31,629 nt of DNA, from positions 1 to 31,629 of the IMG/VR virus record IMGVR_UViG_3300048670_000254, one strand, 5' to 3'. This stretch comes from a virus. Taxonomy: Duplodnaviria > Caudoviricetes. Within the stretch, counting starts at the first letter, position 1. The number at the start of each line of letters is the position of its first letter. Below, piece after piece: positions 3,159 through 29,493 of the stretch. Under the pieces are notes generated by a model. It was given only the letters and a program-made list of their open reading frames with translations, ran no database searches and was not told the origin of the DNA. The translations under genes were made by a program, and so were the position numbers.

Positions 3159-3821
3159 TTAAAGGTGTATAATATTTGCACCTAGCGTGTAATCATCCTG
3201 ATAATTGCCTGTGGGGATTAGGTCATAGGATTCCCTTACAGCAGATGCAATAACCGCCGGAGAAGAATTTATCCCCATAAAGTTCCTAGCGTTCTGAATC
3301 AAAAACGGCATATAGACAACAGAGCTACAACTGATCGCCGTGAGTCCGTTAATGTCCAGTTCCGGTGGGCATAAAACTACAAGATTGTCCTTTCCGTAAA
3401 TCGATATGGCTTTCTTGATAACATTCATCGGATCGTGACGCACGATCTGGCTTATCCCAAAAGGAGCAACCAGATCATAAACTCCTAGGTCTGGAGCCAT
3501 CCAAATATTATCCAAGACGATTCTTTCACCAACTGCGTCTGGAAACTCTCCCCCAAACACAAACTCTTCCCATCGTTTTTCGCTCTTCCTCCAATCATCA
3601 TAAAGCAACGGCCATATTTGCCTATTAAATACATAGTCAAATCTTTCATACGATTCATTAATTTTCTTATGCTTTACATAGGTTGTACATTTTAAAATAT
3701 CCGCATACTCATCTTTGCACTCAAAAAATACTTCGTCTCCTCTGTCTGCGAATAACTTTGCCAACGGCAACATCCGAAGGATATCTCCAAGTCTTTCGTG
3801 ATATTGTATAAGAACCTTCAT
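3159..3821 (-). CDS. GT9/heptosyltransferase-like glycosyltransferase (GT-B)
   Basis: N-terminal RLGDILRMLPLAK and C-terminal FMGINSSPAVIA match GT9-like patterns (xLGD; FxGxDSGxxHxA). Confidence 0.6.
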   Translation of the reverse strand: MKVLIQYHERLGDILRMLPLAKLFADRGDEVFFECKDEYADILKCTTYVKHKKINESYERFDYVFNRQIWPLLYDDWRKSEKRWEEFVFGGEFPDAVGERIVLDNIWMAPDLGVYDLVAPFGISQIVRHDPMNVIKKAISIYGKDNLVVLCPPELDINGLTAISCSSVVYMPFLIQNARNFMGINSSPAVIASAVRESYDLIPTGNYQDDYTLGANIIHL

Positions 3822-5671
3822 CCAGCGAAGTATTCAGTTACTTTATGATTTAAAGCCTCATCAGAATCTAGTAGCTTTATTTTTCTTCCTTTATTTTGCT
3901 CAGACTTTAGTGCTAGGTCTGCGTTGCTTTTTGTATATGTATCAATCTGTTCGTTATCCATGCTTCCACGAAGCCTTGCGGGTACTCCACATCCTGTGCA
4001 AAAGTGTTTAATCTGACCCTCAAATTCTCGGATTGGTTTTTTCCACCATCCCTCTACTACTGGATGTCCGTTATCTGTTCCCCTTGCAAGATCGAAAGAA
4101 GCGGCAACCTCGCAGAAATAGGCTCTTAAATTTCCATTGTTCTGCACAATAGATGCAGACCACTCCCTATTCACATCACACCCAGCGATCTTCTCCCACA
4201 TTTCTTTCTCTGGATATAGGTCTTTTACCGCTGTCAGGAGGGGTGCGTGACGAGAATTTCCCACATAGTATCCTCCATTAAATCCACGCTGATTCACCAT
4301 TACATTGTGAAGGTCTTTGAGCTTTTCATTCGCCCTTTCCTCGTTATGGGGGTTAAGGTTCAAACCACCAAATGTCTTTTCAATTATTTCCCTATGCTTG
4401 AAGTAGTTGTTCGTCCATAGCCCCCTTTGATGCTGGTTCGGAATCTCCTCACGAAATACCTCGCATAGCTTTTCAAACTGCGTATGTACGCAAGGATTCC
4501 CGCCGATCATAGCAATAATTCCCTTGAAGTCCTTAAGACTGCGAAGTGCCAAGCGGAAGTTTTCTGGGGTCATCTCCCATAGCGAGTCTTGGTTTTTTAA
4601 AAGGCGAGTGCAGTTAGAGCAAGCCAAGTCACATTTGTTTGTCACATCCACGCAGATAATCTGCATATGCTCTGGGCTTCTCATCTTGCCAATGGCAATA
4701 TCGGCATAGGATTGGCTCTCAAGATTTTCAGCTACTTTTTCCATGGTAAACTCCTTTTCAAATAAATGCCTATCCTTGGCTATGCTTTTCTGCTTTTCAT
4801 TGATTTCATCAATGGATAGACGCTGAATAAAGTCCGTCAAGCTAAACAAGTGGCGTTCCTCTGTGACATAGCAATATTTATTCCAGTCGATTTTGTCTGC
4901 AAATGGAAGCACATATTCATCTGATACCAATATCGGTATTGACCCATTCAGCAAAGCCTCAATAAACCTAAACGACCATCTTCCATATCCAGCAGGACAA
5001 AGACTAAATACCGACCTAGCCATTAGATCGTGATATGTAATTTCTCCTAGTTTTTTTGAAACTTCATCAGGAGATCCGACTACAATTTTATTGCTTTCAA
5101 ACCTTCTTTTAAACTCTAGTAGCCTACCCCCACGGATATGTTCTTGCGGAAGATGAAGATGCTTCATTCCACCCATAAATGATAGTAAAATATCCCTTTC
5201 AACATTTTGTTTTTTTGCTTCTTTATTTTGATAGGGGAGAATCGCTATGTCTTGCTTGTGAAGGCTCGCCAATGATTCAAGCACAATTAAGATAAAGCGG
5301 TCATCCATCCAGTTATACTTTTTATCGTAAGCTCGAAGTGGATTGGCTTCGTGCGTCATTTCGTGCTTTGATTCTTCCCTTTGTCCGACATCTCCAGTTG
5401 AAACAAGAATATGTTTTCCTCTGTGGAGATAGGCACAATGCTTTACCAAAAGCTCTGGATCGACATTTGCAAATTGTAGCCCAGCCATAAAGATAGGCAC
5501 AAAAAAGAAGTTTGCCTCGTCTGGGTCTTTCGTTTCAAACTTTTTAAAGAAATTATAAAAATCTATCAAATACTGAAGATGTGGATACAGGCGATTTAGC
5601 TGTGCATAAAACAAGTTTTTCTGCCATATCTCATTCGACAAAATGAGATCGTGGTAGATAAAAATCTTCAC
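3818..5671 (-). CDS. Exostosin (GT47) glycosyltransferase fused to a radical SAM domain
   Basis: N-half DPDEANFFFVP and SVFSLCPAGYGRWSFRFIEALLNGSIPILVSDEYVLPF (exostosin). C-half VTNKCDLACSNC (CxxxCxxC), GGNP, and further Cys (FCEV, CTGC). Confidence 0.85.
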   Translation of the reverse strand: MKIFIYHDLILSNEIWQKNLFYAQLNRLYPHLQYLIDFYNFFKKFETKDPDEANFFFVPIFMAGLQFANVDPELLVKHCAYLHRGKHILVSTGDVGQREESKHEMTHEANPLRAYDKKYNWMDDRFILIVLESLASLHKQDIAILPYQNKEAKKQNVERDILLSFMGGMKHLHLPQEHIRGGRLLEFKRRFESNKIVVGSPDEVSKKLGEITYHDLMARSVFSLCPAGYGRWSFRFIEALLNGSIPILVSDEYVLPFADKIDWNKYCYVTEERHLFSLTDFIQRLSIDEINEKQKSIAKDRHLFEKEFTMEKVAENLESQSYADIAIGKMRSPEHMQIICVDVTNKCDLACSNCTRLLKNQDSLWEMTPENFRLALRSLKDFKGIIAMIGGNPCVHTQFEKLCEVFREEIPNQHQRGLWTNNYFKHREIIEKTFGGLNLNPHNEERANEKLKDLHNVMVNQRGFNGGYYVGNSRHAPLLTAVKDLYPEKEMWEKIAGCDVNREWSASIVQNNGNLRAYFCEVAASFDLARGTDNGHPVVEGWWKKPIREFEGQIKHFCTGCGVPARLRGSMDNEQIDTYTKSNADLALKSEQNKGRKIKLLDSDEALNHKVTEYFAG

Positions 5672-6153
5672 TCTTTAAATCCAACTACTGAAAATGACCA
5701 ATATAGATCTCTCTCGCTATTTATAACATTTATAAATCCAATATCGTTTAGTGTTTTTGCTATGTCCTTTGGATGGAAAATGTGCTTATGTTTGCGATTA
5801 TTTTGAGGCAACCAATATTCCATATCTGGATGTGGCAAGTATAGGAATAGTGTTCCCTTTGGACGCAAGTGATCTTTCCAGCACAAAAGCGAATCAATGT
5901 AATTTTCTGTATGTTCTAGCGTATGAGAGCTAAATATAAAGTCATATGTTTCATCTGGAAGATTTGTTGCATTAAATCCATCATCTTTGCTTGTGTTTAT
6001 AGTCCTTGCATTCGGGAAATTCCACTTATCTGTTCCCCCTATATCTAGGCCATTCCCAACACAGAATTGCCTTGCAAATTCAATTATATATGAGCAAGCG
6101 TTTCCATTTTTAATATATTCTGGATATATTTTATCTTTATATTCAAAGATCAT
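5668..6153 (-). CDS. Class I SAM-dependent methyltransferase (Methyltransf_11-like)
   Basis: GLDIGG, YDFIFSSHTLEH, LRPKGTLFLYLP. Confidence 0.85.
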   Translation of the reverse strand: MIFEYKDKIYPEYIKNGNACSYIIEFARQFCVGNGLDIGGTDKWNFPNARTINTSKDDGFNATNLPDETYDFIFSSHTLEHTENYIDSLLCWKDHLRPKGTLFLYLPHPDMEYWLPQNNRKHKHIFHPKDIAKTLNDIGFINVINSERDLYWSFSVVGFKE

Positions 6154-7826
6154 GGGTTTCTTTCTTCAAAAATCTTCTTTCCAAGCTCATAGTTTGCCAT
6201 GGAATTATGAGTCCGAAATACGACATCCTTTTCTGCTCCGGTAAAGAACGGATTCTGGTGATTAAACACAAGATCTGTGGCATCCACCTGAATGTCCTTG
6301 GTTCTTTTTGTGAATTCGTTATCTGCGTAAATACCCGAACACTTTGTATATTCAGGTGCGTAAAAATGACCGCCAAGGTAATCTAGGGTTGGCTTGGTCA
6401 TAATTCCGATGCATAGCAGATCATCTTTACGGTGACCGTCCGATACCGCAAGAACTGCTGGCTTGGTGGGATCTGGAAGTCTGCGCCGGATCTCTTCATC
6501 CCATCCAACCGGAGGAACAAAATCGTCGGATACCTGAATGATGTATTTTCCTTTGGCTTGTTTCATGGTTTCGTTCCACGCACCGACACACTTGCCATCT
6601 GGTACGATCACTCTCTCGTTTCCGGCGTACTCATCTGCATCCACATCCACCCCTAAAAGATGCTGAATTTTGTTGGGTTGTTTGGCCATGGATAGCCAAG
6701 CCCACCGTGCAGACTGGAATCCATTCGGCCTAGCCGTGGCATGGCACAAAGTAATGTCGATTTCTCCAAAATTTTTTTCTTTGTCTTCTTGCAGAAACTT
6801 GACCAGATCCGTCATGCCTAATGCCCTAGCGCAACGCTGGTAAAGATCCGGAGCCTCCCACTTGTAGATTGCGTCTTTTGTAGTCCAGTAGGACTGATTT
6901 GGTAGCGGTATTGAACAGCAGGATCTAGCCAGTGCCAAAGCCTCGGTGTAATGCTTCCGGTTGTAGTAATCTTCCGCAATATAATACAGAGCCTCGATCC
7001 GTTGAGGCTGTAGGGCATATGCCTTGAAAAGCTCTTCTCTCTTGGCGACAGGATCAGCAAGAGATCTGCCGATGATTGTATGGCACTGAACCCGAAGAAT
7101 GATGTCCAGCTTGTCGTCGGCCAAGGCACATTTAGCGTGTTGAATCGCTTCCTGATATTGTCCGGACAGGAAATGCTCTTCTGCCTTGTAGAATCGAAAT
7201 AGCCAGTTTTCACGGAGCGACTCATCCAAAATTTTATGGTTACGGATGACGCTGGATTTCTTGTGATCGATTGGCGCATGAACAATGAGTCCGTGATGCG
7301 TTCCCATGGCTTTAGCCGAATCCTTGAGTGGCTTTAATTGTTCGTGAACTGGATACCGCCAGTGAAACTTGCCTTTTCTAGTGATTCTTTCACGCACTGG
7401 GCAAAGTCCGGCCAAAGGCACGGAATACCCAAAAAAAATGCAGTCATGGTCATCAACCCTAGAAGCCATCTCAAACAGCACCTTATCGGCTCCTTCAACC
7501 AGAAGGTCATCTGCATCAAACCACATGGCAAAGTCGCTTGTACAGGCATTTAAAGCGCAATTTCTGGCATCTGCGAAGCTATCCAGATGATCCCAGTCCT
7601 CGTTTCCGGACTTGTTTCTATAAACTACAACCTTTGCGCCGTACTTCTTGGCTATTTCCTCAAGGATAGGCAAACCCTCATCCGTATGCTTGCCCATGGC
7701 AGAACAAAGCACGATTTCATCCGGCTTTAGCTTTGAGAACGACTCAAGCGATCTGGCAATATATTTGGAGGCACACTCTCTGGAAACAATGGCGTACAGC
7801 GAAAAAGTAAATGGGAATTTGTCCAT
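6150..7826 (-). CDS. GT2-like glycosyltransferase - TPR - second GT-A domain
   Basis: SFADARN...WFDADD...VHEQL, TPR-like helices, then VGAWNE...QVSDDF...YADNEFT. Confidence 0.85.
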   Translation of the reverse strand: MDKFPFTFSLYAIVSRECASKYIARSLESFSKLKPDEIVLCSAMGKHTDEGLPILEEIAKKYGAKVVVYRNKSGNEDWDHLDSFADARNCALNACTSDFAMWFDADDLLVEGADKVLFEMASRVDDHDCIFFGYSVPLAGLCPVRERITRKGKFHWRYPVHEQLKPLKDSAKAMGTHHGLIVHAPIDHKKSSVIRNHKILDESLRENWLFRFYKAEEHFLSGQYQEAIQHAKCALADDKLDIILRVQCHTIIGRSLADPVAKREELFKAYALQPQRIEALYYIAEDYYNRKHYTEALALARSCCSIPLPNQSYWTTKDAIYKWEAPDLYQRCARALGMTDLVKFLQEDKEKNFGEIDITLCHATARPNGFQSARWAWLSMAKQPNKIQHLLGVDVDADEYAGNERVIVPDGKCVGAWNETMKQAKGKYIIQVSDDFVPPVGWDEEIRRRLPDPTKPAVLAVSDGHRKDDLLCIGIMTKPTLDYLGGHFYAPEYTKCSGIYADNEFTKRTKDIQVDATDLVFNHQNPFFTGAEKDVVFRTHNSMANYELGKKIFEERNP

Positions 7827-12101: not shown

Positions 12102-12956
12102 ATGATCAAAAACATTCAAGACATCCAAAAGCTGAAACCCACCGAAATTCGCAAACTCTCGAAAGCCGAACTTGAGGAGATCGTTCCTCTTCTTCGTGCC
12201 GAGTACAAAAGGTACGAATCGTTTGCCAGTGTTATTAAAAATGATTCTGAACGGCGTGAGGCTGTGAATACTGAATGGCGTTTAAGGGATTTGTATGACG
12301 CTGGCCGGAACCGCTTGGAGAAGTATGCCAAGGAGGAACGCAAAGCTCTCCGTGAGGCCAAGCAGAATTCCAAGCAGATTGAGCGTAAGCGGATTGAGGA
12401 TCTTGCCTCTACTCTCCGCAAGAACTTGGTTCCTGTTGAGAATGCTCTTGTTAAATCAATCATTGAGCGTGATAACTTCAGGCTCGAAAAACAGGACGAA
12501 TTCTTCAAGTCGCTCCCCACTCCGTATGTGTTCAACTTTACTTCTCGGTATTCTCAAGAAAAAGACGAAATTGAATACATCGAATTCAATCATCAGTATG
12601 GCCGTTTCTGGAGTTACGAAAGACTTGAAAACGATTATCGGCCTCATGCTCCCAAAAAAGCTTATCAAAAAGACAATCTTTCGGAACGGATTGAAAAAGA
12701 TGCCAAGGATTATGCCAAGACAGCCTGTGACGAGTTTGCTTTCAAGATCGTCCAGAAGACAGAGGAGGAAATCAAAAGCCGTGGCACTGATGACAAGATC
12801 GTTTCGACCTCCTACGAAGGTAATGTGAATCCTTGGGATGGCGGTCAGGTGATTGTCACGACGACCAAGGGCAAGTATGTCTGGAACACCAAGGTGATCC
12901 TGAACTTCTCAAAGTACGGACTCCCCTTCAACCAGTGGCCAACTCGGTTGGCCTAG
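12102..12956 (+). CDS. Hypothetical phage protein (only convincing plus-strand gene)
   Basis: 284-aa ORF with near-consensus promoter, coiled N-half and C-terminal TKVILNFSKYGLPFNQWPTR. Confidence 0.8.
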   Translation: MIKNIQDIQKLKPTEIRKLSKAELEEIVPLLRAEYKRYESFASVIKNDSERREAVNTEWRLRDLYDAGRNRLEKYAKEERKALREAKQNSKQIERKRIEDLASTLRKNLVPVENALVKSIIERDNFRLEKQDEFFKSLPTPYVFNFTSRYSQEKDEIEYIEFNHQYGRFWSYERLENDYRPHAPKKAYQKDNLSERIEKDAKDYAKTACDEFAFKIVQKTEEEIKSRGTDDKIVSTSYEGNVNPWDGGQVIVTTTKGKYVWNTKVILNFSKYGLPFNQWPTRLA

Positions 12957-13055: not shown

Positions 13056-16000
13056 TCAGTCGAAGAGGTTTCCATGGGTTGCCTTTACTGGAGCCGTTCC
13101 TTGGCTCCTATCTGCGTTGCCGTCGATGGAATAGCCGATGTCGGCAATTCCTTCGGAGGTTAATTTAGTCCAAGTCTTTCTAGCCTGTTCAGCAGATCCC
13201 CTGATGTAGTCATATGGAACATACCGTCCGTTTGGCTTATTGAATCGCTTTGAGGCACGATCCAGAGCTACCTTGTCGTCCACATCCACATGAACTAGGC
13301 CGATTGTATATCCAACCGATTTCAGCGTTCTCGCCATTTCAGCAACTTTATTAGAGTTCTTTCCGGTAATGTCGATCAAAAGATTGTGGTTATTGCCCAC
13401 TGCTCTTGGGAATACAACCTTCTCGGATATAAGTGCGGATTCCTCATGGAACGCTCCGGCATTCCATCCTTCAAACCCTTTTGACTTTCCCTTAACCGAA
13501 TCCGGATCGATCTTGGTTGTCTCTTTTCCGTTCAGGATCTTTTCTGCAAATGGCCGTCCGGTGGTTGTTTTGCCACTGGCAGGAGATCCCATGAGGATAA
13601 CGGCAATTGGGTTAGTCGATTGCGCCTTGGGGTTTAATTCGCTATCAATAACAGCCTGTTTCCACTTTTCGTGTTCTGGGGTTGGGCTGTTGAAGGTTTC
13701 GATGAGATCCTTTTTCTGGATGTATCGCTTTGGATCTCGCAGTGACCAGTGGGTAACCGGAGCATTCTCCGATCCCTCTGCTTTGGCCACTTCCTTCTGT
13801 AGTTTGGCCATTTTATCCATAGCCATTTTTGCCTTTGGTTCTGCTTTTAGCTTTTGAACCATTTGATCAATTTCATCGCTTGTAGTGCTTGTTTCGGATT
13901 CTTTGTTTGCCTTGGTGGATTTCCCCTTTACCTTGCCCTTGCCACCTCCACCTCCCTTTCCAGACCAGCGACCATTTTCATCCCTTGGCTGGTTGGGATC
14001 GTAGAATTCAATAACCTTTCCGTTGTATTGGAAAACGAATGATTCAATGGCTACCTCCTCGTCAAACTGGAACCCCTCGGAGCCATCATCCGGTAACTGG
14101 ATAACGATAGGTACATAAATCAACTTGCTACCGTCTGCTAGTTGCTTGGTTGCTAGAGGCTTTGGCTTGGGGCCATTCTCGTACACATACTTCCGGATCG
14201 TATCGACCTCAAAAATTTGCATAAGCTTAATTGCAGTTGGAGGAACAACGCCATCCTTGGTAAAGATTTTGGATACGGCATTCAATCCAGTCTTGCCCAT
14301 CTTTTGAGCCTTGGTTGTGGGGATGTTATCGGCAACGCTCTTGAAGCCATCAGCCAGTACGCTGATAATCCCGATTAACTGCTTCCCACCAATCTTGGGG
14401 GCTGACCCAGAACGCAATACGCCATATTCCATGGCCAGATCTAGACTGTCGGTACTGTACACCTTACCCCCACCCCAAACGCCACTTTTAGAGGGTTTTA
14501 GGCCGTCTTTTCGTATGTCTTTAAGCACATCTGCCGAAGTTCCGTGATATAAAACCGTAGATTGGCCTGTTTTCTTGCTTGCCTCTGCCGGATTATCTTG
14601 CGCCCACTTTGGGGTTGGAGTTGTTCCAGAAGATCCTCCAGAGCCAGTCCATTTGCCAGAATCATCTCGCTTTTGAGATGGATCGTAAAAATCTATCGCT
14701 TGATAGCTCCGGTAATAATTACGCCCTCCCCTTCGTTGTACTCCGAGGCGAACACGATTCGGGAAAGATCGCTCATAGTTGTCGATGATTGATTTGTAGG
14801 CTTTTTTTCCTGCAATCCTTGTGTCTCCACCGATGAACTCTCCGACTCCCCTGACTGCTTCTGATTTTCCATTTATTGCTCCTAGAAATTTGGCAACATT
14901 AGCGGTCAACTGCGATCCTTGGTCTAGGATTGTTACGCTAGTCTTGGCTCTGTCACCTACCATTGTTCTAAAACTAATCCCATTCTCTGACAATATTTTT
15001 CTGACCTCATCCATTGGCCTGTCTGCTGATATTTTATGCAGGATGTCTGGGCCGTCCTTCTTTTTCTGAAATGCAACAACTGCTTTTTGGTTTAGACTCG
15101 CCCCTAGCTTGGATGCTGTGTATTTAAGTTGATCAAAGTCCTTCACTCCGTTTACATCGATTTTAATCGAATTCTCTGCGCCATCCTCCCAATCACCCAC
15201 CCCAGACTCGACCTTGCCATCCATGTCTTGCTTCTTGATGGCATCTTTTGCGATGCTCACGGCTCTAGCGTGTTCTGGCGAATCGATCATCTTTTTCGCC
15301 TCTTCGTAATTCATGTTCTCTTTGATGTTTGGAGAGACAAGGATTTCACCACCCAAACCACCCCCGCCAGTCCACTTGCCGGATTCGTCTCTTGCCTGTG
15401 ATGGATCGTAAAACTCTGTTTTGTCTGAAGAAAAATTATTTTTCTTTGGCTCTCGCTCTATTACATCAGATTTCTTTTCAGGCTCCATGGGATATGGTTT
15501 CCGAACAAAACCATTTTTTTTGTACCATTCGTGAAGCTTTGATTTGGATAAACCTCCGGTTCCGGTTGGGCTTACCGTTGCTGTTATTTTTGCGCCAATC
15601 TTGTCTGCTGAATCTGTAATTTCTTTTAGTGCTTTTGAAGCAATACCTTTCCCTCTAGACTCATCTTTTGTCTCTATATGAGAAATGCGAAGAGTATCGT
15701 CAAATGATGGCTTTAATTCTGCCGTAACTTCACCTTCAGAATATTGTTTTGAAAAGAATGGCCCGCCAATATTTTCCCAACCCTTTTTAGCCATATCGGA
15801 AAGAACTGATGTGGCCTTACTCCATTTTCCAGATTCGTCTCTTGGCTGTGAAGGATCGTAGAATGTGACAACCTGAAACTCTTTTTTCTTCTTGAGATAC
15901 TTCAGGATAGATACCCGCAATACATCGGTAAGGTAGTCTGCAACATCTGCAATATTGATGTCTTCCTGTAGCTCTGTGGGGTTAATGCTGGCCTCCATGG

Positions 16001-16940
16001 GCTTTACCCCTACCTGCTTTTCGACGGCAGACTTAATTTCCTGCCCTTTCTTGATCGATTGATACTCTCTAGTTGCGTTGCTTATGATTCCATGAATTGC
16101 GCTTCGAGTGGCTATAAATGGTAGTACCTGTGGAGCAAATATGGCATTCGTTAATATATCCGCTTGATCGTTTCTGATTCCCTTCAAAGCACCGATAGCA
16201 CCTGCTCCGGCAACCTTCAGTGTTTTATCTACTGCTCCAATTAGCTTCTGGCCATCTTCGGACTTGATCCAATTCGATATTTGCTTTGGAGTGAGATTTC
16301 CGTATTTGGTTTTAATCTTGGCATCTTTTAGGTTTTCACCCAAGGACTCTACGGCTTTCTTGAACTTTCCGTCCTCGATGTCGATCTCCGGATTCTCTTT
16401 TTGAATCCTGCTAATAATCCTTTGAGATATTTCATTTGGGCTTTCTACGCTAGAAACAAATCCTCCGCTAGTCCACTTTCCAGCCTCGTCTCTTTTCTGG
16501 CTAGGATCATAAAGCAGTGTTGCTCCTTGTTCCTTTAGGGCTATCAGATCTGCCTTTAGTTGTTCAAAGTTTGTCTTGTCCGTGATTGGGCCGCCCACGA
16601 TCCACGCATCACAGGTTCTTAAAGAGGCGCATTTGAAGTCGAAGATTTCGCAGTAGCCCAGATCGCCAGCTTGTTCAACTTCCTGTGCGTCTGATCCAAT
16701 GCCTTTACTGATGCAGTTTGTGAGCTTGGTTGTTTGGTTGAATCCGGCGCAGTTACCGCAACGCATGGTTTTTGCTTCTTTGACCGACCCGCCAAAGATC
16801 TTTGCTTTTGCTGTCCAGTATTCTTCATTTGGCTCCTTTGGATTGGCTGGGCCATAGTGTGCTACATCAATAGCTTTCGCTCTGTTGGCGAGATTGGTTT
16901 TGATGTCCTGTGTTGGTAGTGGACACTTACTCTCGGCCAT
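13056..16940 (-). CDS. Polyvalent head-associated protein: Cys-rich domain, unknown module, GNAT, SAM-lyase-like, ART-like and zeta-toxin-like P-loop kinase
   Basis: RCGNC...CEIFDFKC; RGKGIASKAL...WYKKNGF (GNAT); GDWEDGAENS...NQKAV; LYHGTS...VYST...AMEY (ART); MGSPASGKTT...IDPD...HEES...IDIT (zeta). Confidence 0.85.
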   Translation of the reverse strand: MAESKCPLPTQDIKTNLANRAKAIDVAHYGPANPKEPNEEYWTAKAKIFGGSVKEAKTMRCGNCAGFNQTTKLTNCISKGIGSDAQEVEQAGDLGYCEIFDFKCASLRTCDAWIVGGPITDKTNFEQLKADLIALKEQGATLLYDPSQKRDEAGKWTSGGFVSSVESPNEISQRIISRIQKENPEIDIEDGKFKKAVESLGENLKDAKIKTKYGNLTPKQISNWIKSEDGQKLIGAVDKTLKVAGAGAIGALKGIRNDQADILTNAIFAPQVLPFIATRSAIHGIISNATREYQSIKKGQEIKSAVEKQVGVKPMEASINPTELQEDINIADVADYLTDVLRVSILKYLKKKKEFQVVTFYDPSQPRDESGKWSKATSVLSDMAKKGWENIGGPFFSKQYSEGEVTAELKPSFDDTLRISHIETKDESRGKGIASKALKEITDSADKIGAKITATVSPTGTGGLSKSKLHEWYKKNGFVRKPYPMEPEKKSDVIEREPKKNNFSSDKTEFYDPSQARDESGKWTGGGGLGGEILVSPNIKENMNYEEAKKMIDSPEHARAVSIAKDAIKKQDMDGKVESGVGDWEDGAENSIKIDVNGVKDFDQLKYTASKLGASLNQKAVVAFQKKKDGPDILHKISADRPMDEVRKILSENGISFRTMVGDRAKTSVTILDQGSQLTANVAKFLGAINGKSEAVRGVGEFIGGDTRIAGKKAYKSIIDNYERSFPNRVRLGVQRRGGRNYYRSYQAIDFYDPSQKRDDSGKWTGSGGSSGTTPTPKWAQDNPAEASKKTGQSTVLYHGTSADVLKDIRKDGLKPSKSGVWGGGKVYSTDSLDLAMEYGVLRSGSAPKIGGKQLIGIISVLADGFKSVADNIPTTKAQKMGKTGLNAVSKIFTKDGVVPPTAIKLMQIFEVDTIRKYVYENGPKPKPLATKQLADGSKLIYVPIVIQLPDDGSEGFQFDEEVAIESFVFQYNGKVIEFYDPNQPRDENGRWSGKGGGGGKGKVKGKSTKANKESETSTTSDEIDQMVQKLKAEPKAKMAMDKMAKLQKEVAKAEGSENAPVTHWSLRDPKRYIQKKDLIETFNSPTPEHEKWKQAVIDSELNPKAQSTNPIAVILMGSPASGKTTTGRPFAEKILNGKETTKIDPDSVKGKSKGFEGWNAGAFHEESALISEKVVFPRAVGNNHNLLIDITGKNSNKVAEMARTLKSVGYTIGLVHVDVDDKVALDRASKRFNKPNGRYVPYDYIRGSAEQARKTWTKLTSEGIADIGYSIDGNADRSQGTAPVKATHGNLFD
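13962..16511 (-). repeat. Five dispersed YDP(S/N)QxRDxxG(K/R)W peptide repeats
   Basis: At about 16470-16511, 15819-15860, 15369-15410, 14646-14687 and 13962-14003. Confidence 0.9.
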
Positions 16941-19370: not shown

Positions 19371-19844
19371 TTATTGCAGTGTTAATAGGTACTTTAGCCT
19401 GTTTAGTTCCCCGACAACTCCATCCCGAAGATTGAGTAGATCGGTATCGGATGCTTTTACGCTCTGTGTGAATTCTCCCATGAGAAAGTCGATTGCTTGA
19501 TTTGCCAGAGTGACTCCGGCTCCATCGACTAGGTTCATAAGAGAAATATTGAAGTTGTTTGTTGCGTAAGCTCTTCCATATCTACCAAAATATGTTTCAA
19601 GAAGCTCGTCAATTGAATTATCTAGGATCTCGTAAATCTTTCCAAAACTATTGTGATAGCTGTAACTTTTAGTCTGCCAGTGGTATATCCGGAACTGGTT
19701 TTGCACATAAAGTAGTTGAGCAACAATGATTTCTGCATTGTTCTTTAGTGAAATCTCTGTCAAAACCTCGACTGGTTCCTTCACTACCTCAAACTCGTTC
19801 TTGAGCTTGTCCACTTTTTCAATCATTTTGTCGAGGTGATTCAT
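19371..19844 (-). CDS. Ferritin/Dps-like four-helix protein (DUF5856-like)
   Basis: YHWQTKSYSYHNSFGKIYE...IDELLETYFG...DLLNLRD...LKYLLTL. Confidence 0.75.
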   Translation of the reverse strand: MNHLDKMIEKVDKLKNEFEVVKEPVEVLTEISLKNNAEIIVAQLLYVQNQFRIYHWQTKSYSYHNSFGKIYEILDNSIDELLETYFGRYGRAYATNNFNISLMNLVDGAGVTLANQAIDFLMGEFTQSVKASDTDLLNLRDGVVGELNRLKYLLTLQ

Positions 19845-22116: not shown

Positions 22117-22640
22117 AGCCGGAAGTCCTCATGTATGGAAACAAGTTTAGTGCCTAATGGATAAAGAATTTTCTCGTCGTCTGTCTGGCAAATAACATTC
22201 CTAGCGTGTTTAAGATGCACGAATGCCCAATTCAAAAGCACATCATCCATCTTCATGTCCGTAAAAACAATATCTCTGGCTGGACGCATCTTCCACAGGA
22301 ATTTGATTCCCTCCCTGCTGATGTTGTACTTTTCAGGAAGATCCGGAGCAACACCTACCCAAGAACGCATTTTGAACTTTGAAAGCTTGTAGATTATATC
22401 CAAACAGGCTTGCTGTCCGTTTCCACAGAACCAGACAGGGTAGCCCTTGCCACTCAATATCCTAGTATTCTTCTTTTCGTTGCTGGTGTGGGGCGAGAAA
22501 AAGAACAGATGCGGGTAAATGGAATGACCCATGCAGTCGTCGGCAAGGAATACAGCAGAGTTTGCGTGTCTGCTTTTCGGATCTCCACAGCAGATGATGG
22601 CCGCCTCATCGGGCTTTTCATACTTATCCGAGGTTCCCAT
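22113..22640 (-). CDS. Hypothetical protein
   Basis: 175-aa ORF overlapping both neighbours in the operon. Confidence 0.65.
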   Translation of the reverse strand: MGTSDKYEKPDEAAIICCGDPKSRHANSAVFLADDCMGHSIYPHLFFFSPHTSNEKKNTRILSGKGYPVWFCGNGQQACLDIIYKLSKFKMRSWVGVAPDLPEKYNISREGIKFLWKMRPARDIVFTDMKMDDVLLNWAFVHLKHARNVICQTDDEKILYPLGTKLVSIHEDFRL

Positions 22641-23229
22641 GGGTTTCGTAAACAGATGCCAAGATGATGTTGGCGATTCCCTCGATCTTTTTGCTCTCCC
22701 CGATCTGCTTGACCTTCCCCATGAAATCCTTCAAATCCTTTTTTTCCACATAAAGGGGGATCATTTCCACATCGCCTGTCTCGATTTCCTCTTTTATGTC
22801 ATCAACTTCTGGTGGCGCACCAGTAAGCATCTTTTCGATCTCCTCTTTGGAGAATCCGGTCAGTTCAATGTTTAGCGGGGTTTGGTCAATTTCTTCAAGG
22901 AGGCTTTTGAGGGCTTCGTTGTCGAATTCCCCCGCAAGGTTGTTGAGTGCGAGGTTTGCGACTTTCTCTTTGTCTTCCGGCAAATCGACTGCCCACACAT
23001 CGACTTCATCACGCCCCATGGCTTGGTAAATTTTATACCTCTGATGCCCACCAATGATCCTGTTTCCAGTCCGAACATTGATCGTGATGGGTTGAATGTC
23101 TCCCAACTCTGTAAGACTTTTCGTGAGGCGACCCAACGCCTCTGGAGTAATCTTTCTAGGATTGTAACCAGCCCCTTGTATCTCATTCAGTTTTAACCTC
23201 AATATCTTGGGGTACTTGCTCATTTGCAC
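22624..23229 (-). CDS. ParB/Srx-like N-terminal domain protein
   Basis: YNPRKI...SLTELGDIQPITIN...IIGGHQR...ANLALNN. Confidence 0.8.
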   Translation of the reverse strand: MQMSKYPKILRLKLNEIQGAGYNPRKITPEALGRLTKSLTELGDIQPITINVRTGNRIIGGHQRYKIYQAMGRDEVDVWAVDLPEDKEKVANLALNNLAGEFDNEALKSLLEEIDQTPLNIELTGFSKEEIEKMLTGAPPEVDDIKEEIETGDVEMIPLYVEKKDLKDFMGKVKQIGESKKIEGIANIILASVYETHGNLG

Positions 23230-25260: not shown

Positions 25261-25371
25261 TTATACTTTGTGTACTACTGTGTGGAAGAGCCATACTACC
25301 AATGAGACTGGGTACAGCCACCAAGGTAGATTGTTTGCGTGGATAATCAGACAGGCTATGAACAGCGTCAT
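25261..25371 (-). CDS. Possible 36-aa membrane peptide
   Basis: MTLFIACLIIHANNLPWWLYPVSLVVWLFHTVVHKV*; ATGA overlap with the CmoA-like stop; fills the gap exactly. Confidence 0.5.
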   Translation of the reverse strand: MTLFIACLIIHANNLPWWLYPVSLVVWLFHTVVHKV

Positions 25372-26021
25372 CGCTTCTCCAAGATGTAGCCAGCGAATTC
25401 TCCAAGCCGGAAGAACTCGACTGCGTTGAATGGCATTTCATGTTTCATCACTGGCCTCTGGATGCCACATAGCTGTAGCTCCTTGGCTACGATGTCTGCT
25501 GGTTTGACTGCGTTCTGCATTTTCCAATCCATTGTGAGCCTCCTTATTGTTGTTCCTGCGTAACCTTCTTCTGCTTCCATTTTCTCCACCAAAATAATTG
25601 CCCCGCCATAGTTGCATTTCTGCATTAAATCGTCAAGAAATTTTCCTCTTTTATTCACAGGCATGAACATGAATGAAAGAAAGAAGATTGCCAAATCGAA
25701 TGGCTCGTACTCCACCTCCATCGCATCTTGGCAGATTAACTTTCCAATTCCTCCCTTGTAATTGTCTGCCAGTTCCTCGCTCTCTTCGATGGCAAAGAAT
25801 CGCAGATCTCTTTCCTCAATCAGTGGAGTGAGTGCCTTTCCAATATTTCCTGTGGATGCACCAATATCGTAGATCAATCCATCCTTGGGTGCGTAGCTTC
25901 TGGTTATAAAGGCTGTGGCTTGAGTTGCGAAATCATACCAAGGGAGTTGTTCCCTGACATGATTGTCGAAGTTTTGTGCCAGCTTTTCGTCTTTAAATGT
26001 CCAATCTTTAATACCATTCAT
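25368..26021 (-). CDS. CmoA-like carboxy-SAM synthase / SAM-binding protein
   Basis: DWTFKDEKLAQNFDNHVREQLPWY and YDIGASTG parallel the CmoA DWTFDE...FxDMxxRSVPGY and YDLGCSLG; also GGAIILVEK. Confidence 0.75.
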   Translation of the reverse strand: MNGIKDWTFKDEKLAQNFDNHVREQLPWYDFATQATAFITRSYAPKDGLIYDIGASTGNIGKALTPLIEERDLRFFAIEESEELADNYKGGIGKLICQDAMEVEYEPFDLAIFFLSFMFMPVNKRGKFLDDLMQKCNYGGAIILVEKMEAEEGYAGTTIRRLTMDWKMQNAVKPADIVAKELQLCGIQRPVMKHEMPFNAVEFFRLGEFAGYILEKR

Positions 26022-27000
26022 ATCCTAATTTCCTCCCTATTGCTTCTATGATTTGTATTGTTACTGTTCTACCGCATCTTTCGTATCGCTCGCTGTCTGT
26101 AGCCTGTTTGAGCGTCCCATCATCCATTTTCATCCACTTCGTAAAGTCATCCGGTAGCCCCTGTAGCCTCTCGCACTCCACGCAGGTCAGTTTCCGGATG
26201 TTTCTACCGTCCAATGATACCCCCATTTTGTTTTGTGGGGTTGAGTCGAGAGTCCAGATGTAATCGCTCTGCCTGTTGCGATCCACCATATTCGACTGGG
26301 TGTGGCTTCTGGCATGAATGAATGGCACATTACCACCTCCTGTACCCATATGGGCTAACAGAGTTGGGGAAATTCCATCTGTGAATCGTCTGAATTGGTT
26401 CTCTCGCCGGATGAACTGGAGGATTTCTGGCTGTCCACTGGCTCCTTCTCCAGCATCCTTTGCACCTGTTTCTCCGATAGGAAATACTTTTGGTCTGGGT
26501 TTTCCTCTAATATTTGCAATAAGGAACACCCTTTCTCTGTGTTGCGGGACTCCGAAATTTTTGCTGTCAAGTAGTTCCCATTGAGCGTCATACCCCAAGC
26601 CATCCAAGATTTCGAGTATGACTCCGAAGGTTCTTCCTTCATCGTGGTTGAGCAGTCCTTTAACATTCTCGAAAAGTATGTATGGTATTCCTCGATCCCT
26701 AGCCAATCGAAACATTTCAAAAGCGAGAGTGCCTCTGGCATCTTCCAGATCGAAACCCGATCTTTTCCCTGCAATTGAGAAAGTGGCACAAGGAAATCCT
26801 CCACAAATGAGATCTGCTTCTGGAAGTTCTGATCCGGAAACAGTTCGAATGTCTCGTCCGTCTGGTTGCTCTCCGAATTGTTTTGCATAGATTCTCCTTG
26901 GTTTTTCAAGCCATTCGTTTGCCCACACGCACTGATGCCCTGTTGCCTCCAATCCAAGCCGGAAACCACCGATTCCAGCAAAAAGCTCTATGAATTTCAA
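26008..27000 (-). CDS. C5 cytosine DNA methyltransferase family enzyme, candidate carboxymethyltransferase
   Basis: FAGIGG (I), GGFPC (IV), ENVKGL (VI), QHRER (VIII), ECERLQG (IX); motif X reads CGRTVT. Confidence 0.9.
   Translation of the reverse strand: MKFIELFAGIGGFRLGLEATGHQCVWANEWLEKPRRIYAKQFGEQPDGRDIRTVSGSELPEADLICGGFPCATFSIAGKRSGFDLEDARGTLAFEMFRLARDRGIPYILFENVKGLLNHDEGRTFGVILEILDGLGYDAQWELLDSKNFGVPQHRERVFLIANIRGKPRPKVFPIGETGAKDAGEGASGQPEILQFIRRENQFRRFTDGISPTLLAHMGTGGGNVPFIHARSHTQSNMVDRNRQSDYIWTLDSTPQNKMGVSLDGRNIRKLTCVECERLQGLPDDFTKWMKMDDGTLKQATDSERYERCGRTVTIQIIEAIGRKLGYEWY
26355..26888 (-). CDS. Nested +1-frame ORF inside the MTase (EcoHK31I beta-like)
   Basis: ATG 26888 has AAGGAG 5 nt upstream; 177 aa with WMAWGMTLNG...CSLLQILEENPDQKYFLS. 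Confidence 0.6.
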   Translation of the reverse strand: MQNNSESNQTDETFELFPDQNFQKQISFVEDFLVPLSQLQGKDRVSIWKMPEALSLLKCFDWLGIEEYHTYFSRMLKDCSTTMKEEPSESYSKSWMAWGMTLNGNYLTAKISESRNTEKGCSLLQILEENPDQKYFLSEKQVQRMLEKEPVDSQKSSSSSGERTNSDDSQMEFPQLC

Positions 27001-27845
27001 GCGTTTTCTAGCTCTTTTGCGATCTGATTATACAGTCCAATGATCGCTTTGTGGTTCTTGGTATTGTATTTTGACCTTAACAACTCGTCGTGGAACTGGT
27101 TTGTCCGTGAATTTATCTGGTATGATGAGTGCTTTCTATGCCCACCAACCCTATCGAAATACTCCGAAAAGGCTCTCGTAACTATGTTTTTGTGTGGTCT
27201 GATGATGTCTTTGAGCCTGAACTGAAGGAAAAATTCTTCAATCCTCTTGTCTGCATATGCATCCACCCATTTAACTCCGTAATCCAATGCTATTTTCTTG
27301 CTTAAAAGCTCCATAGAATCCTCCACATTATCCAGACTGACTCTTTTGCCAGCATCCAATACCGCAATCTCTCCCTTGGTTTTCAGCATTATATTAACTT
27401 TTCTCTTGTCCGGCTGGTAGTCATCAGCCGACAGCCCATTAAGCATTACAGAGGCATTACAGGCCGAAAATAGGTGCTTTAATGGCCTTAAAGTCTCTAT
27501 CTTGGTCTTTAATATCTTATTCCCACAGTATGGAATAATTTCCCTTGTTTCCCTGTAAATTGTATCAATGTCCGACGGCATTCTTACCTCTACAAGATTA
27601 ACCCCAAATTCAGCGCAATACTTCCTAGATTCCAAGAGATCATCGCTTTCGTATCCGTCTTGATAAAAAGTGTAACACTCAAAATCAATATCTAGTTCCT
27701 TTAGGCAAAAGAAGATTGATGCGCTATCAATGCCTCCAGACATGGCCAATGCAACTGGTTCTTGAGTCACTGACCTGTGAACGCTATCTATTAAAAGATC
27801 CCTGAAAGTCGATATGTCCGACTTCTCAATTGGCCTAAAATTCAC
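26997..27845 (-). CDS. Asparagine-synthase-like PP-loop ATP-dependent amide ligase (no glutaminase domain)
   Basis: VALAMSGGIDSASI and MLNGLSADD; 282 aa. Confidence 0.8.
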   Translation of the reverse strand: MNFRPIEKSDISTFRDLLIDSVHRSVTQEPVALAMSGGIDSASIFFCLKELDIDFECYTFYQDGYESDDLLESRKYCAEFGVNLVEVRMPSDIDTIYRETREIIPYCGNKILKTKIETLRPLKHLFSACNASVMLNGLSADDYQPDKRKVNIMLKTKGEIAVLDAGKRVSLDNVEDSMELLSKKIALDYGVKWVDAYADKRIEEFFLQFRLKDIIRPHKNIVTRAFSEYFDRVGGHRKHSSYQINSRTNQFHDELLRSKYNTKNHKAIIGLYNQIAKELENA

Positions 27846-28085
27846 TTATAGAATCTCTTCTTCTCGCTCGATAACTACCGTAAGCTCGATCTCACGGCTT
27901 GTGCCTCTGATGTCCATTACGAGTGGGAGCATTTCATGCAAAAGCTTCCCCTTTTTTGTTGCGTAGCTTCTGGCCAACTCAATTATGGCAGTCCTTGTGA
28001 CTAGGGGAATATCCCCAATGCGCCGGATCGGGTGAGTTGCCGTCTTGCACATATCCGCAAACTTTTTTCTGTTTAGTTTTCTCAT
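27846..28085 (-). CDS. Hypothetical protein
   Basis: Fills the operon gap with an ATGA overlap. Confidence 0.6.
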   Translation of the reverse strand: MRKLNRKKFADMCKTATHPIRRIGDIPLVTRTAIIELARSYATKKGKLLHEMLPLVMDIRGTSREIELTVVIEREEEIL

Positions 28086-28516
28086 CTGAACCAGTTCTCT
28101 AGGTCTTCCATGGTTGCTGTCCGTTTACGCAATTCACTTGAAGAGTAAATGTGCTTCCGTTTGTGATAGTGGATCTCGATCCCATTGTCCAGACAATACT
28201 GCTTTCCGGTGAAATCTTTTCCGATGTATTCCTCGCTCAAGAATCGTATGTCGATCTTCTGGGTTTTGATCAACTGCTCCAGATCAAATTCAGTCTCATA
28301 GACTAGGATTTCATCCACATACCTGCACCCTTGGAGTTGCACATAACGCTCGTAAAGGCTCTGTATTGGCTTGTTTTTAGTGTCCTGACGGTCAATCGAT
28401 GGATCTACCTGTAATGCCACCTTCAGGTAATCACAGAGATCTTTTTCCATCTTCAGCATGGTCACATGGCCAGCGTGAAGCAGGTCAAAGCAGGAGCAAT
28501 TGAATCCAATCTTCAT
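28082..28516 (-). CDS. TagD-like (glycerol-3-phosphate) cytidylyltransferase
   Basis: MKIGFNCSCFDLLHAGH (HxGH) and YSSSELR; start reassigned to ATG 28516 (ATGA overlap). Confidence 0.85.
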   Translation of the reverse strand: MKIGFNCSCFDLLHAGHVTMLKMEKDLCDYLKVALQVDPSIDRQDTKNKPIQSLYERYVQLQGCRYVDEILVYETEFDLEQLIKTQKIDIRFLSEEYIGKDFTGKQYCLDNGIEIHYHKRKHIYSSSELRKRTATMEDLENWFR

Positions 28517-29493
28517 GCTACCCACCATGGGTTCCAGAGCGTCCATACAACTACTTCTTTTAGCGAATCCTCGAAGTCCATCTCCTGCTTCCATCCAAGC
28601 GACTCAATCTTCGAGCCGTCCAGAGCGTACTTTTTATCGTATCCGGAACGCACTGATTCACCGTCAACAAGCTCTGTTTTTGCATCAAAATCCATTATTT
28701 TTGCTATTTTATTTACCAGATCAATATTGGTTACCTCATCCTGCCCTGCCACATTGTACCTGTCCGGAAGCTCCTCGTTCTCTGATCCGGAGTACATCTT
28801 CACATCCCTGCGAAGGATGAAAGAGATAGCCGATGATAGATTATCGACATGAATGTACTTTCTTGAGCCGGAATTGCCCTTATTTGAGTAGATTGGGATC
28901 GTCCTGCCCTCTGCTATGTACTTTATGGTCTTGGGGATCATTTTCTCCGGATTCTGGCTCTTTCCGAACATATTCTGCGAGTTAATGATGGCCAGCGGTA
29001 CTTGGTAGGTTCTCCAATAGGAAATGGCGATTGCCTCCTGACAGGCTTTCGATGCTGAATAAGGATTGGATGGAACGATCTTGTCCCATTCTTTATGGGG
29101 TTCGCCGTAGCACTGGCCATAGACTTCATCCGTGGAAAGGTGGATAAACTTCTTCACGCTTTTCTTTTTTGCGAGATCCAGAATGTTTAGCATCAGGTTA
29201 ACATTATTTGTGATGACGGCATCCGGCGACTTGATCGACCTTTCAATGGCCGACTCACTGGCAATATTGATTATGGCATCGATGCTTCCGATCTTGGCTG
29301 ATAGCACATCAGACACGGGCGCATTCAGATCGTGGGTTAGGTGAGTGAATCTTGGATCTTTTGAGATCCTCTGGGAATCTCCCATATGCCGTAACGAGTC
29401 TAATCCGATGACATTGTATGGTGTCTTTTTTAATAGATACTCAACGAAGTTTGACCCGACGAATCCTGCGCTTCCGGTTACCAGCACATTCAT
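28513..29493 (-). CDS. rfbB: dTDP-glucose 4,6-dehydratase (RmlB-like SDR)
   Basis: TGSAGFVG, STDEVYG, PYSASK, EKMIPK, RSGYDKKYALD. Confidence 0.85.
   Translation of the reverse strand: MNVLVTGSAGFVGSNFVEYLLKKTPYNVIGLDSLRHMGDSQRISKDPRFTHLTHDLNAPVSDVLSAKIGSIDAIINIASESAIERSIKSPDAVITNNVNLMLNILDLAKKKSVKKFIHLSTDEVYGQCYGEPHKEWDKIVPSNPYSASKACQEAIAISYWRTYQVPLAIINSQNMFGKSQNPEKMIPKTIKYIAEGRTIPIYSNKGNSGSRKYIHVDNLSSAISFILRRDVKMYSGSENEELPDRYNVAGQDEVTNIDLVNKIAKIMDFDAKTELVDGESVRSGYDKKYALDGSKIESLGWKQEMDFEDSLKEVVVWTLWNPWWVA

Follow-up and report, generated by a model that had tools for sequence, protein, structure and literature searches.

Gene content of the locus

The virus record IMGVR_UViG_3300048670_000254 (31.6 kb; all 31,629 nucleotides (nt) were analysed and are called the window below) carries a minus-strand operon whose products, to judge from their sequences, likely add a carboxymethyl group, and probably an amino acid on top of it, to cytosines in the phage DNA. 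The record is 87% complete by CheckV, its terminase and portal genes are lambda-like, and the sequencing runs that match it best are mostly labelled freshwater metagenomes, with no RNA data set among those listed. A sequence-only reading of the window had described three overlapping genes encoding a ligase, a C5 cytosine transferase and a CmoA-like protein, and had pointed to a similar trio from a cyanophage. Both points are borne out: the three open reading frames (ORFs) all lie on the minus strand, overlapping by 4 nt (ligase and transferase) and 14 nt (transferase and CmoA-like gene), and the cyanophage trio is the biochemically proven CmoA/CmoX/CmoY set of Synechococcus phage S-B43 (PMC12783734). 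There, SpCmoA makes carboxy-S-adenosylmethionine (Cx-SAM), SpCmoX uses it to set a 5-carboxymethyl group on the C of GC, and SpCmoY adds glycine (PMC12783734). A fourth ORF, overlooked by the sequence-only reading, runs in the +1 frame within the transferase gene (26981-26355, 208 amino acids (aa) from a TTG). The operon comprises the following features:

26997..27845, minus strand: putative CmoY-type ATP-dependent amide ligase, 282 aa, no glutaminase domain, an optional cassette (Pfam Asn_synthase, E 1.6e-11)
27723-27740, minus strand: PP-loop SGGIDS within the ligase gene
26008..27000, minus strand: C5 cytosine transferase, alpha chain, 330 aa (DNA_methylase, E 1.8e-67)
26068..26070, minus strand: AGA codon of Arg311, aligned with M.HhaI Asn304 and SpCmoX Arg350
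26355..26888, minus strand: predicted beta chain, read in the +1 frame within the transferase gene, 177 aa if begun at the ATG (phrog_16143, E 9.6e-27)
26218..26373, minus strand: variable region with two target-recognition-like modules (PTLLAHMGTGGGNVP; SHTQSNM...WTLD), shuffled in relatives
25368..26021, minus strand: CmoA-like putative carboxy-SAM synthase, 217 aa (phrog_4752, E 1.1e-42; E. coli CmoA 4gek, E 1.8e-11)

The transferase: motif X arginine, predicted second chain and descent

The alpha chain displays motifs I (FAGIGG), IV (GGFPC, with Cys71), ENV, VIII, IX and X (YERCGRTV). The arginine that had been proposed in motif X YERCGRTVT at codon 26068-26070 is Arg311, encoded by AGA, and alignment places it on the motif X Asn of M.HhaI (Asn304, in YKQFGNSV) and on Arg350 of SpCmoX (in ERVGRMV), a position that would put it near the cofactor. 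In SpCmoX, Arg350 replaces the HhaI Asn304, the enzyme accepts only Cx-SAM and an R350N variant is inactive (PMC12783734); Asn-to-basic changes in motif X also convert M.MpeI and M.CviPI to Cx-SAM use (PMC13288465). The arginine is found in 119 of the 120 best homologues, the remaining one being truncated. The catalytic and cofactor-binding residues of SpCmoX likewise have counterparts in the window enzyme, namely C71, E111 (the ENV Glu), R155/R157 (motif VIII) and F7, E29, W30 and D50, the last four corresponding to the SpCmoX cofactor contacts F25/E47/F48/D69.

The motif X arginine is coupled to a neighbouring CmoA gene. With duplicates removed, and counting Arg genes with at least 1.5 kb of downstream sequence, CmoA adjoins 88 of 88 distinct Arg relatives and none of 95 Asn ones, although many of these Asn controls are near-copies of cyanobacterial chromosomal enzymes, and viral, metagenome or phage loci account for only 43 of them; those 43 are all CmoA-negative whatever their flank length. 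This coupling and the homology to the S-B43 trio support the earlier proposal of 5-carboxymethylcytosine (5cxmC) formation followed by amidation. It could be argued that the transferase is an ordinary SAM-dependent methyltransferase producing 5-methylcytosine, or a dual-cofactor enzyme, with its neighbours as hitch-hikers, since both its sequence (E 8e-46 against M.HhaI, 1e-13 against SpCmoX) and its model (Z 25.5, root-mean-square deviation (rmsd) 2.9 and 259 aligned residues against M.HhaI; Z 22.2, rmsd 3.2 and 249 aligned against SpCmoX) are nearer to M.HhaI. However, the Arg-CmoA coupling knows no exception, and CmoA stays adjacent, up- or downstream, even though it is swapped among three subfamilies, making this explanation very improbable.

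The overlooked +1-frame ORF is under selection. Its ATG at 26888 is preceded by AAGGAG 5 nt upstream, and over 127 residues its product shares 45% identity with the protein annotated in phage MM1 as "C5 methyltransferase beta subunit". The frame matches 206 phage records, lying under cytosine methylase genes wherever the listed rows name one. It is free of stops over about 157 codons in 126 of 128 distinct Arg genes, where synonymous shuffling gives an expectation of 4.6 stops and a 0.7% chance of none, and 97 of 114 genes have a Shine-Dalgarno-like core ahead of an in-frame ATG, compared with 265 of 2280 random windows, in a count that admits several ATGs per gene. The window therefore holds a selected second-frame ORF homologous to an annotated beta subunit. 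M.EcoHK31I is described as having this layout, its second chain read entirely from a different frame of the alpha gene, and as needing both chains (PMC2836561).

Binding of the two chains is predicted from modelling, which lends it support: the alpha/beta complex scores 0.62 and the best of three controls 0.00, passing a mark reached by 116 of 157 solved pairs and 2 of 215 mismatched pairs. The model runs agree on at least 70% of contacts with a predicted local distance difference test score (pLDDT) of at least 46 for the partner, and the modelled contacts join beta 93-104 to alpha 138-143 and pack beta 118-137 on motif IX. Two points count against the pairing as modelled, in that the beta fold itself has low confidence and the pass could reflect likeness to single-chain methyltransferase structures.

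In place of SPPC around the catalytic cysteine, the window transferase and all 120 best homologues read GGFPC. Among the best 150 representatives at 50% clustering, motif X holds Arg in 6, Asn in 119 and another residue in 4 (21 were unparsed), which makes ordinary enzymes the closest kin outside the Arg group. A first tree, of 78 rows, separates the two Arg groups and sets the SPPC enzymes on a long stem, but an approximately unbiased (AU) test on these rows did not reject a single clade (p=0.134), which tells against separate descent. A second tree of 82 rows, computed without the trait columns, took in the 16 plasmid and phage sequences closest to SpCmoX and lost 12 rows (10 close relatives of retained rows and two long-branch staphylococcal rows). 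It nests the Arg-GFPC clade (99/94) within Asn enzymes and places the SPPC clade with Asn sisters of its own, and a single clade with SpCmoX is rejected (AU p=0.0002). With GGFPC in place of SPPC, its separate branch and this rejection, the window transferase is not a CmoX by the published definition: it would work like CmoX, outside that definition, and belongs to a separate lineage.

A single origin of the arginine, whether by descent of this lineage from CmoX or by recombination that brought in motif X, would leave the chemistry unchanged. The ERxGR common to both groups and the first AU result speak for it. The second AU test opposes it, as do the flanks of motif X, which are 47% identical to the Asn sisters and 15% identical to the SPPC enzymes and so argue against a swapped-in motif, although a short conversion tract of a few (about five) codons may have been involved. 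The beta frame also follows the Asn sisters, with 0-3 stops in eight of them, whereas no SPPC gene has a beta-like tail; two SPPC genes have a single stop, but these are nearly open in the +2 frame too. A single origin thus appears improbable, and the transferase likely evolved its Cx-SAM chemistry apart from SpCmoX, with an ordinary phage alpha/beta methyltransferase as its starting point, as far as sequence comparison can tell. Twelve contig identifiers, three of them SPPC positive controls, were without a match in the source-data file of PMC12783734, which leaves this comparison uninformative.

Other arrangements were encountered in the survey. CmoA-adjacent C5 transferases of two staphylococcal phages (L003:5494-6501, vB-SscS-F1; L004:4681-5679, SPbeta-like) read FGSPC, have Gly at the motif X position (YDVVGGVI) and form a long separate branch, possibly representing a third solution for Cx-SAM use. 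Within the CmoX clade, some SPPC-type enzymes have Met (L407, L412, L414, L415) or Leu (L410) at this position, and no annotated CmoA occurs within the 1-1.5 kb flanks of these five. Erwinia phage Y3 (L005, 4965-7556) encodes CmoA and CmoY followed by an annotated oxygenase, with no C5 transferase within the 10.7 kb examined.

The CmoA-like protein, the ligase cassette and target sites

The CmoA-like protein has E. coli CmoA (4gek) as its best PDB match and retains SAM-binding residues. It scores 61 bits (E 1.2e-16) on TIGR00740, under the cut-off of 193, as does SpCmoA with 116. In E. coli CmoA, Arg199 binds the carboxylate (PMC3663124), and the sequence-only reading had cautioned that the KRSML segment around it reads KELQL in the window. 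Alignment confirms that KELQL falls on KRSML, with Glu181 at the Arg199 position, but the caveat is not decisive, because the proven SpCmoA reads KEKEL and also has Glu there; KELQL was accordingly rejected as a decisive sign of a dead CmoA. The caveat is weakened further by Arg161 on the neighbouring lid helix, a residue that 116 of 120 homologues share and the remaining four replace with Lys. Judging by covariation, it is a candidate substitute for Arg199, so that the carboxylate-binding arginine would have been relocated.

Phage CmoA proteins fall into three types, with a basic residue at 199, with Glu199 and an Arg four residues later (as in SpCmoA), or with Glu or Asp199 and Arg161. Beside GFPC-Arg transferases these types occur at 7, 64 and 57 loci respectively, with 2 of none, duplicates included, and nearly all CmoA rows have a single basic residue at one of the three mutually exclusive positions. 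The window subfamily has invariant residues of its own (W7, H21, Q188 and R189) and a long separate branch (100/100), and it lacks both Arg199 and the SpCmoA-type arginine four residues later. These features would suit a protein that makes another SAM derivative, or acts after the transferase, for example by esterifying the carboxylate, while the host supplies Cx-SAM, in which case the final base would be neither 5cxmC nor its amide. Three findings argue otherwise: next to this one transferase clade the subfamily is interchangeable with synthases of the SpCmoA and E. coli types, the basic residue keeps to mutually exclusive positions, and in Moraxella phage Mcat8 a member of the subfamily (42% identity) partners a CmoX with SPPC and Arg. 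Such an altered function is considered unlikely, and a role in Cx-SAM synthesis is preferred. A scan of viral contigs for close relatives, using the CmoA sequence alone as the query, found nothing.

The ligase combines an Asn-synthase ATP domain and PP-loop with the absence of a glutaminase domain and a position beside the transferase and CmoA-like genes, as expected of CmoY. It shares 23-25% identity with SpCmoY (24.9%, E 2e-10) and keeps the PP-loop and several motifs. Of 121 distinct relatives only 9 have such a gene, or 7 of 72 when each flank must reach 1.5 kb or more. The carriers show four gene orders and occupy scattered branches, suggesting repeated gains. In two near-identical phages (L006 and L007) the flanking sequence matches the window at 96-97% identity on either side, and just the ligase gene is missing, the upstream stop abutting the transferase start; the gene is thus a precise indel of about 845 bp. 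Among four sequencing runs from four studies, a contig of run X5 passes directly from 26996 to 27842, a long contig of another run includes the gene, and the two others cover it in pieces. Its GC content is 0.41, against 0.44-0.49 in its neighbours. The 79-aa gene just upstream (27846-28121) is replaced by 238 unrelated letters in the contig of a ligase-positive relative (run X6), marking this spot as a site of gene exchange.

The variable region of the alpha chain is built of modules shuffled among relatives, which we infer to be target-recognition domains. Modular target regions are known of multispecific phage methylases. Several sites are purged from the window (seen/expected: ACGT 0/63, CGCG 1/57, CCWGG 0/57, GCWGC 0/56, GGWCC 2/45, CTNAG 3/119), whereas GGCC, AGCT, CCGG, GATC and TCGA are kept. 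The loss of sites such as GCWGC and CGCG is a weak argument against a blanket protection of GC like that in S-B43. Associations between modules and sites over 64 loci are confounded by kinship. Relatives of the window have purged other sets of restriction-type sites.

Proposed pathway and comparison with known systems

Taken together, these genes are read as a Cx-SAM synthase, a two-chain transferase and an optional amide ligase acting on phage cytosines, a scheme to which we assign a probability of about 0.85. The CmoA-like protein would convert SAM and host prephenate into Cx-SAM, as shown for SpCmoA. Cys71 of the transferase would then attack C6 of the cytosine while Arg311 holds the Cx-SAM carboxylate, yielding 5cxmC as shown for SpCmoX, and the beta chain, evident as a selected ORF and predicted to bind, would complete the transferase fold. 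Finally, the ligase would adenylate the carboxylate and couple an amine, glycine in the case of SpCmoY and probably an alpha-amino acid here, and the near-identical phages with the ligase indel would stop at 5cxmC. The likely purpose is to shield a restricted number of motifs from nucleases of the host. The chemistry that the sequence-only reading proposed is very likely right, yet it had already been published for CmoA/CmoX/CmoY, and the window trio is therefore no new kind of system.

Several observations weigh against this scheme. The transferase lacks the SPPC sequence that the published CmoX definition requires and is only 29% identical to SpCmoX, the identity between ligase and SpCmoY is low, and to these are added the sub-threshold TIGR00740 score, the missing arginines of the CmoA-like protein and the make-up of the Asn controls described above.

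What the window offers is a variant of a known system, with a likely separate origin, a predicted two-chain transferase, a third CmoA type and a switchable ligase. We lean modestly towards a wider reading, held as a whole, in which DNA carboxymethylation was invented at least twice in phages. In this wider reading, the present lineage would derive from two-chain, dual-frame methyltransferases of modular specificity through a convergent change of motif X from YKxxGN to YERxGR, and would have recruited any of three CmoA subfamilies, each with the carboxylate-binding arginine at a different position. The amide ligase would be gained and dropped as a clean cassette, one population switching between bare 5cxmC and an amidated mark whose amine is possibly not glycine, and the shuffled target modules would form a natural library of sequence-specific carboxymethyltransferases. 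If this is true, the published census of 5,615 CmoX proteins, which required both SPPC and R350 (PMC12783734), omits a whole clade of freshwater-phage enzymes, and the switch from methyl to carboxymethyl transfer is a repeatable evolutionary step, as engineered in M.MpeI N374K. A codon-optimised clone of the annotated gene would lose the overlapping beta chain, and a false negative would probably result. The near-twins with and without the ligase form a natural experiment that bears on the reason phages have for capping the carboxylate, and the modular target domains may give new specificities for 5cxmC-based sequencing tools.

Elsewhere in the window, a ParB-N protein is encoded ahead of the terminase (22624..23229, minus strand, by library match). 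ParBc genes often accompany CmoX loci (PMC12783734), and a ParB-like gene, judged from its sequence start, is the commonest neighbour among the loci surveyed here (52 of 146); no further modifying enzyme was evident among the recurrent neighbours in these 146 loci, whose clusters were judged by eye. Directly after the portal gene lies a gene for a 1294-aa polyvalent protein (13056-16940, minus strand) with weak GNAT-like and PARP-like stretches, a C-terminal zeta-toxin-like kinase and a short motif, YDPSQxRDExGKW, repeated between domains. Sugar-handling genes at 3818-7826 and 28082-29493 (minus strand) encode a GT2 glycosyltransferase with TPR, a methyltransferase, an exostosin-GT47/radical-SAM fusion, a cytidylyltransferase and a nucleotide-sugar dehydratase, and probably serve virion or surface glycosylation. 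A lone plus-strand gene of 284 aa (12102-12956, phrog_4687) lies within the head module, and a DUF5856 gene (19371-19844, minus strand; PHROG label starvation-inducible regulator) lies between the terminase and portal genes.

The closest known system is that of phage S-B43 (Yang et al., Nat Commun 2025, PMC12783734; structure PDB 8YF3); judging by titles and abstract openings, a search of open-access literature yielded no other paper on natural CmoX enzymes. Both loci have three homologous genes in one operon, Arg at the HhaI N304 position of motif X, the catalytic Cys, ENV and motif VIII residues, a ligase without a glutaminase domain and Glu at the CmoA Arg199 position. They differ in that the window transferase reads GGFPC rather than SPPC, stands on a separate branch of the C5 family and is predicted to be an alpha/beta pair with a modular variable region, whereas the S-B43 enzyme is a monomer that targets GC. 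The gene order is Y-X-A in the window and A-Y-X in S-B43, the window CmoA is of another subfamily (23% identity), and the ligase is optional among the relatives of the window.

The two-chain architecture resembles that of M.EcoHK31I (PMC2836561) and phage MM1 (DQ113772), in which the second chain also lies in another frame of the alpha gene. Those enzymes differ in carrying Asn in motif X, as seen in MM1, and in having no CmoA; going by its description, EcoHK31I also has motif IX on the beta chain (PMC2836561), unlike the window alpha chain, which has its own motif IX. With E. coli CmoA (PDB 4GEK; PMC3663124) the window protein shares the fold family and the contacts Tyr39, Asp62, Gly64, Ser66, Asp117, Phe137 and Glu164 (Y29, D52, G54, S56, D99, F119 and E146 in the window), but Arg199, Asn132 and Asp89 are replaced by Glu181, Phe114 and Glu79, and the protein would serve DNA rather than tRNA. 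The engineered enzymes M.MpeI N374K and M.CviPI (PMC13288465) similarly gain Cx-SAM use from a basic residue at the motif X Asn; as described there, they differ from the window transferase in being engineered, single-chain and specific for CpG or GpC.

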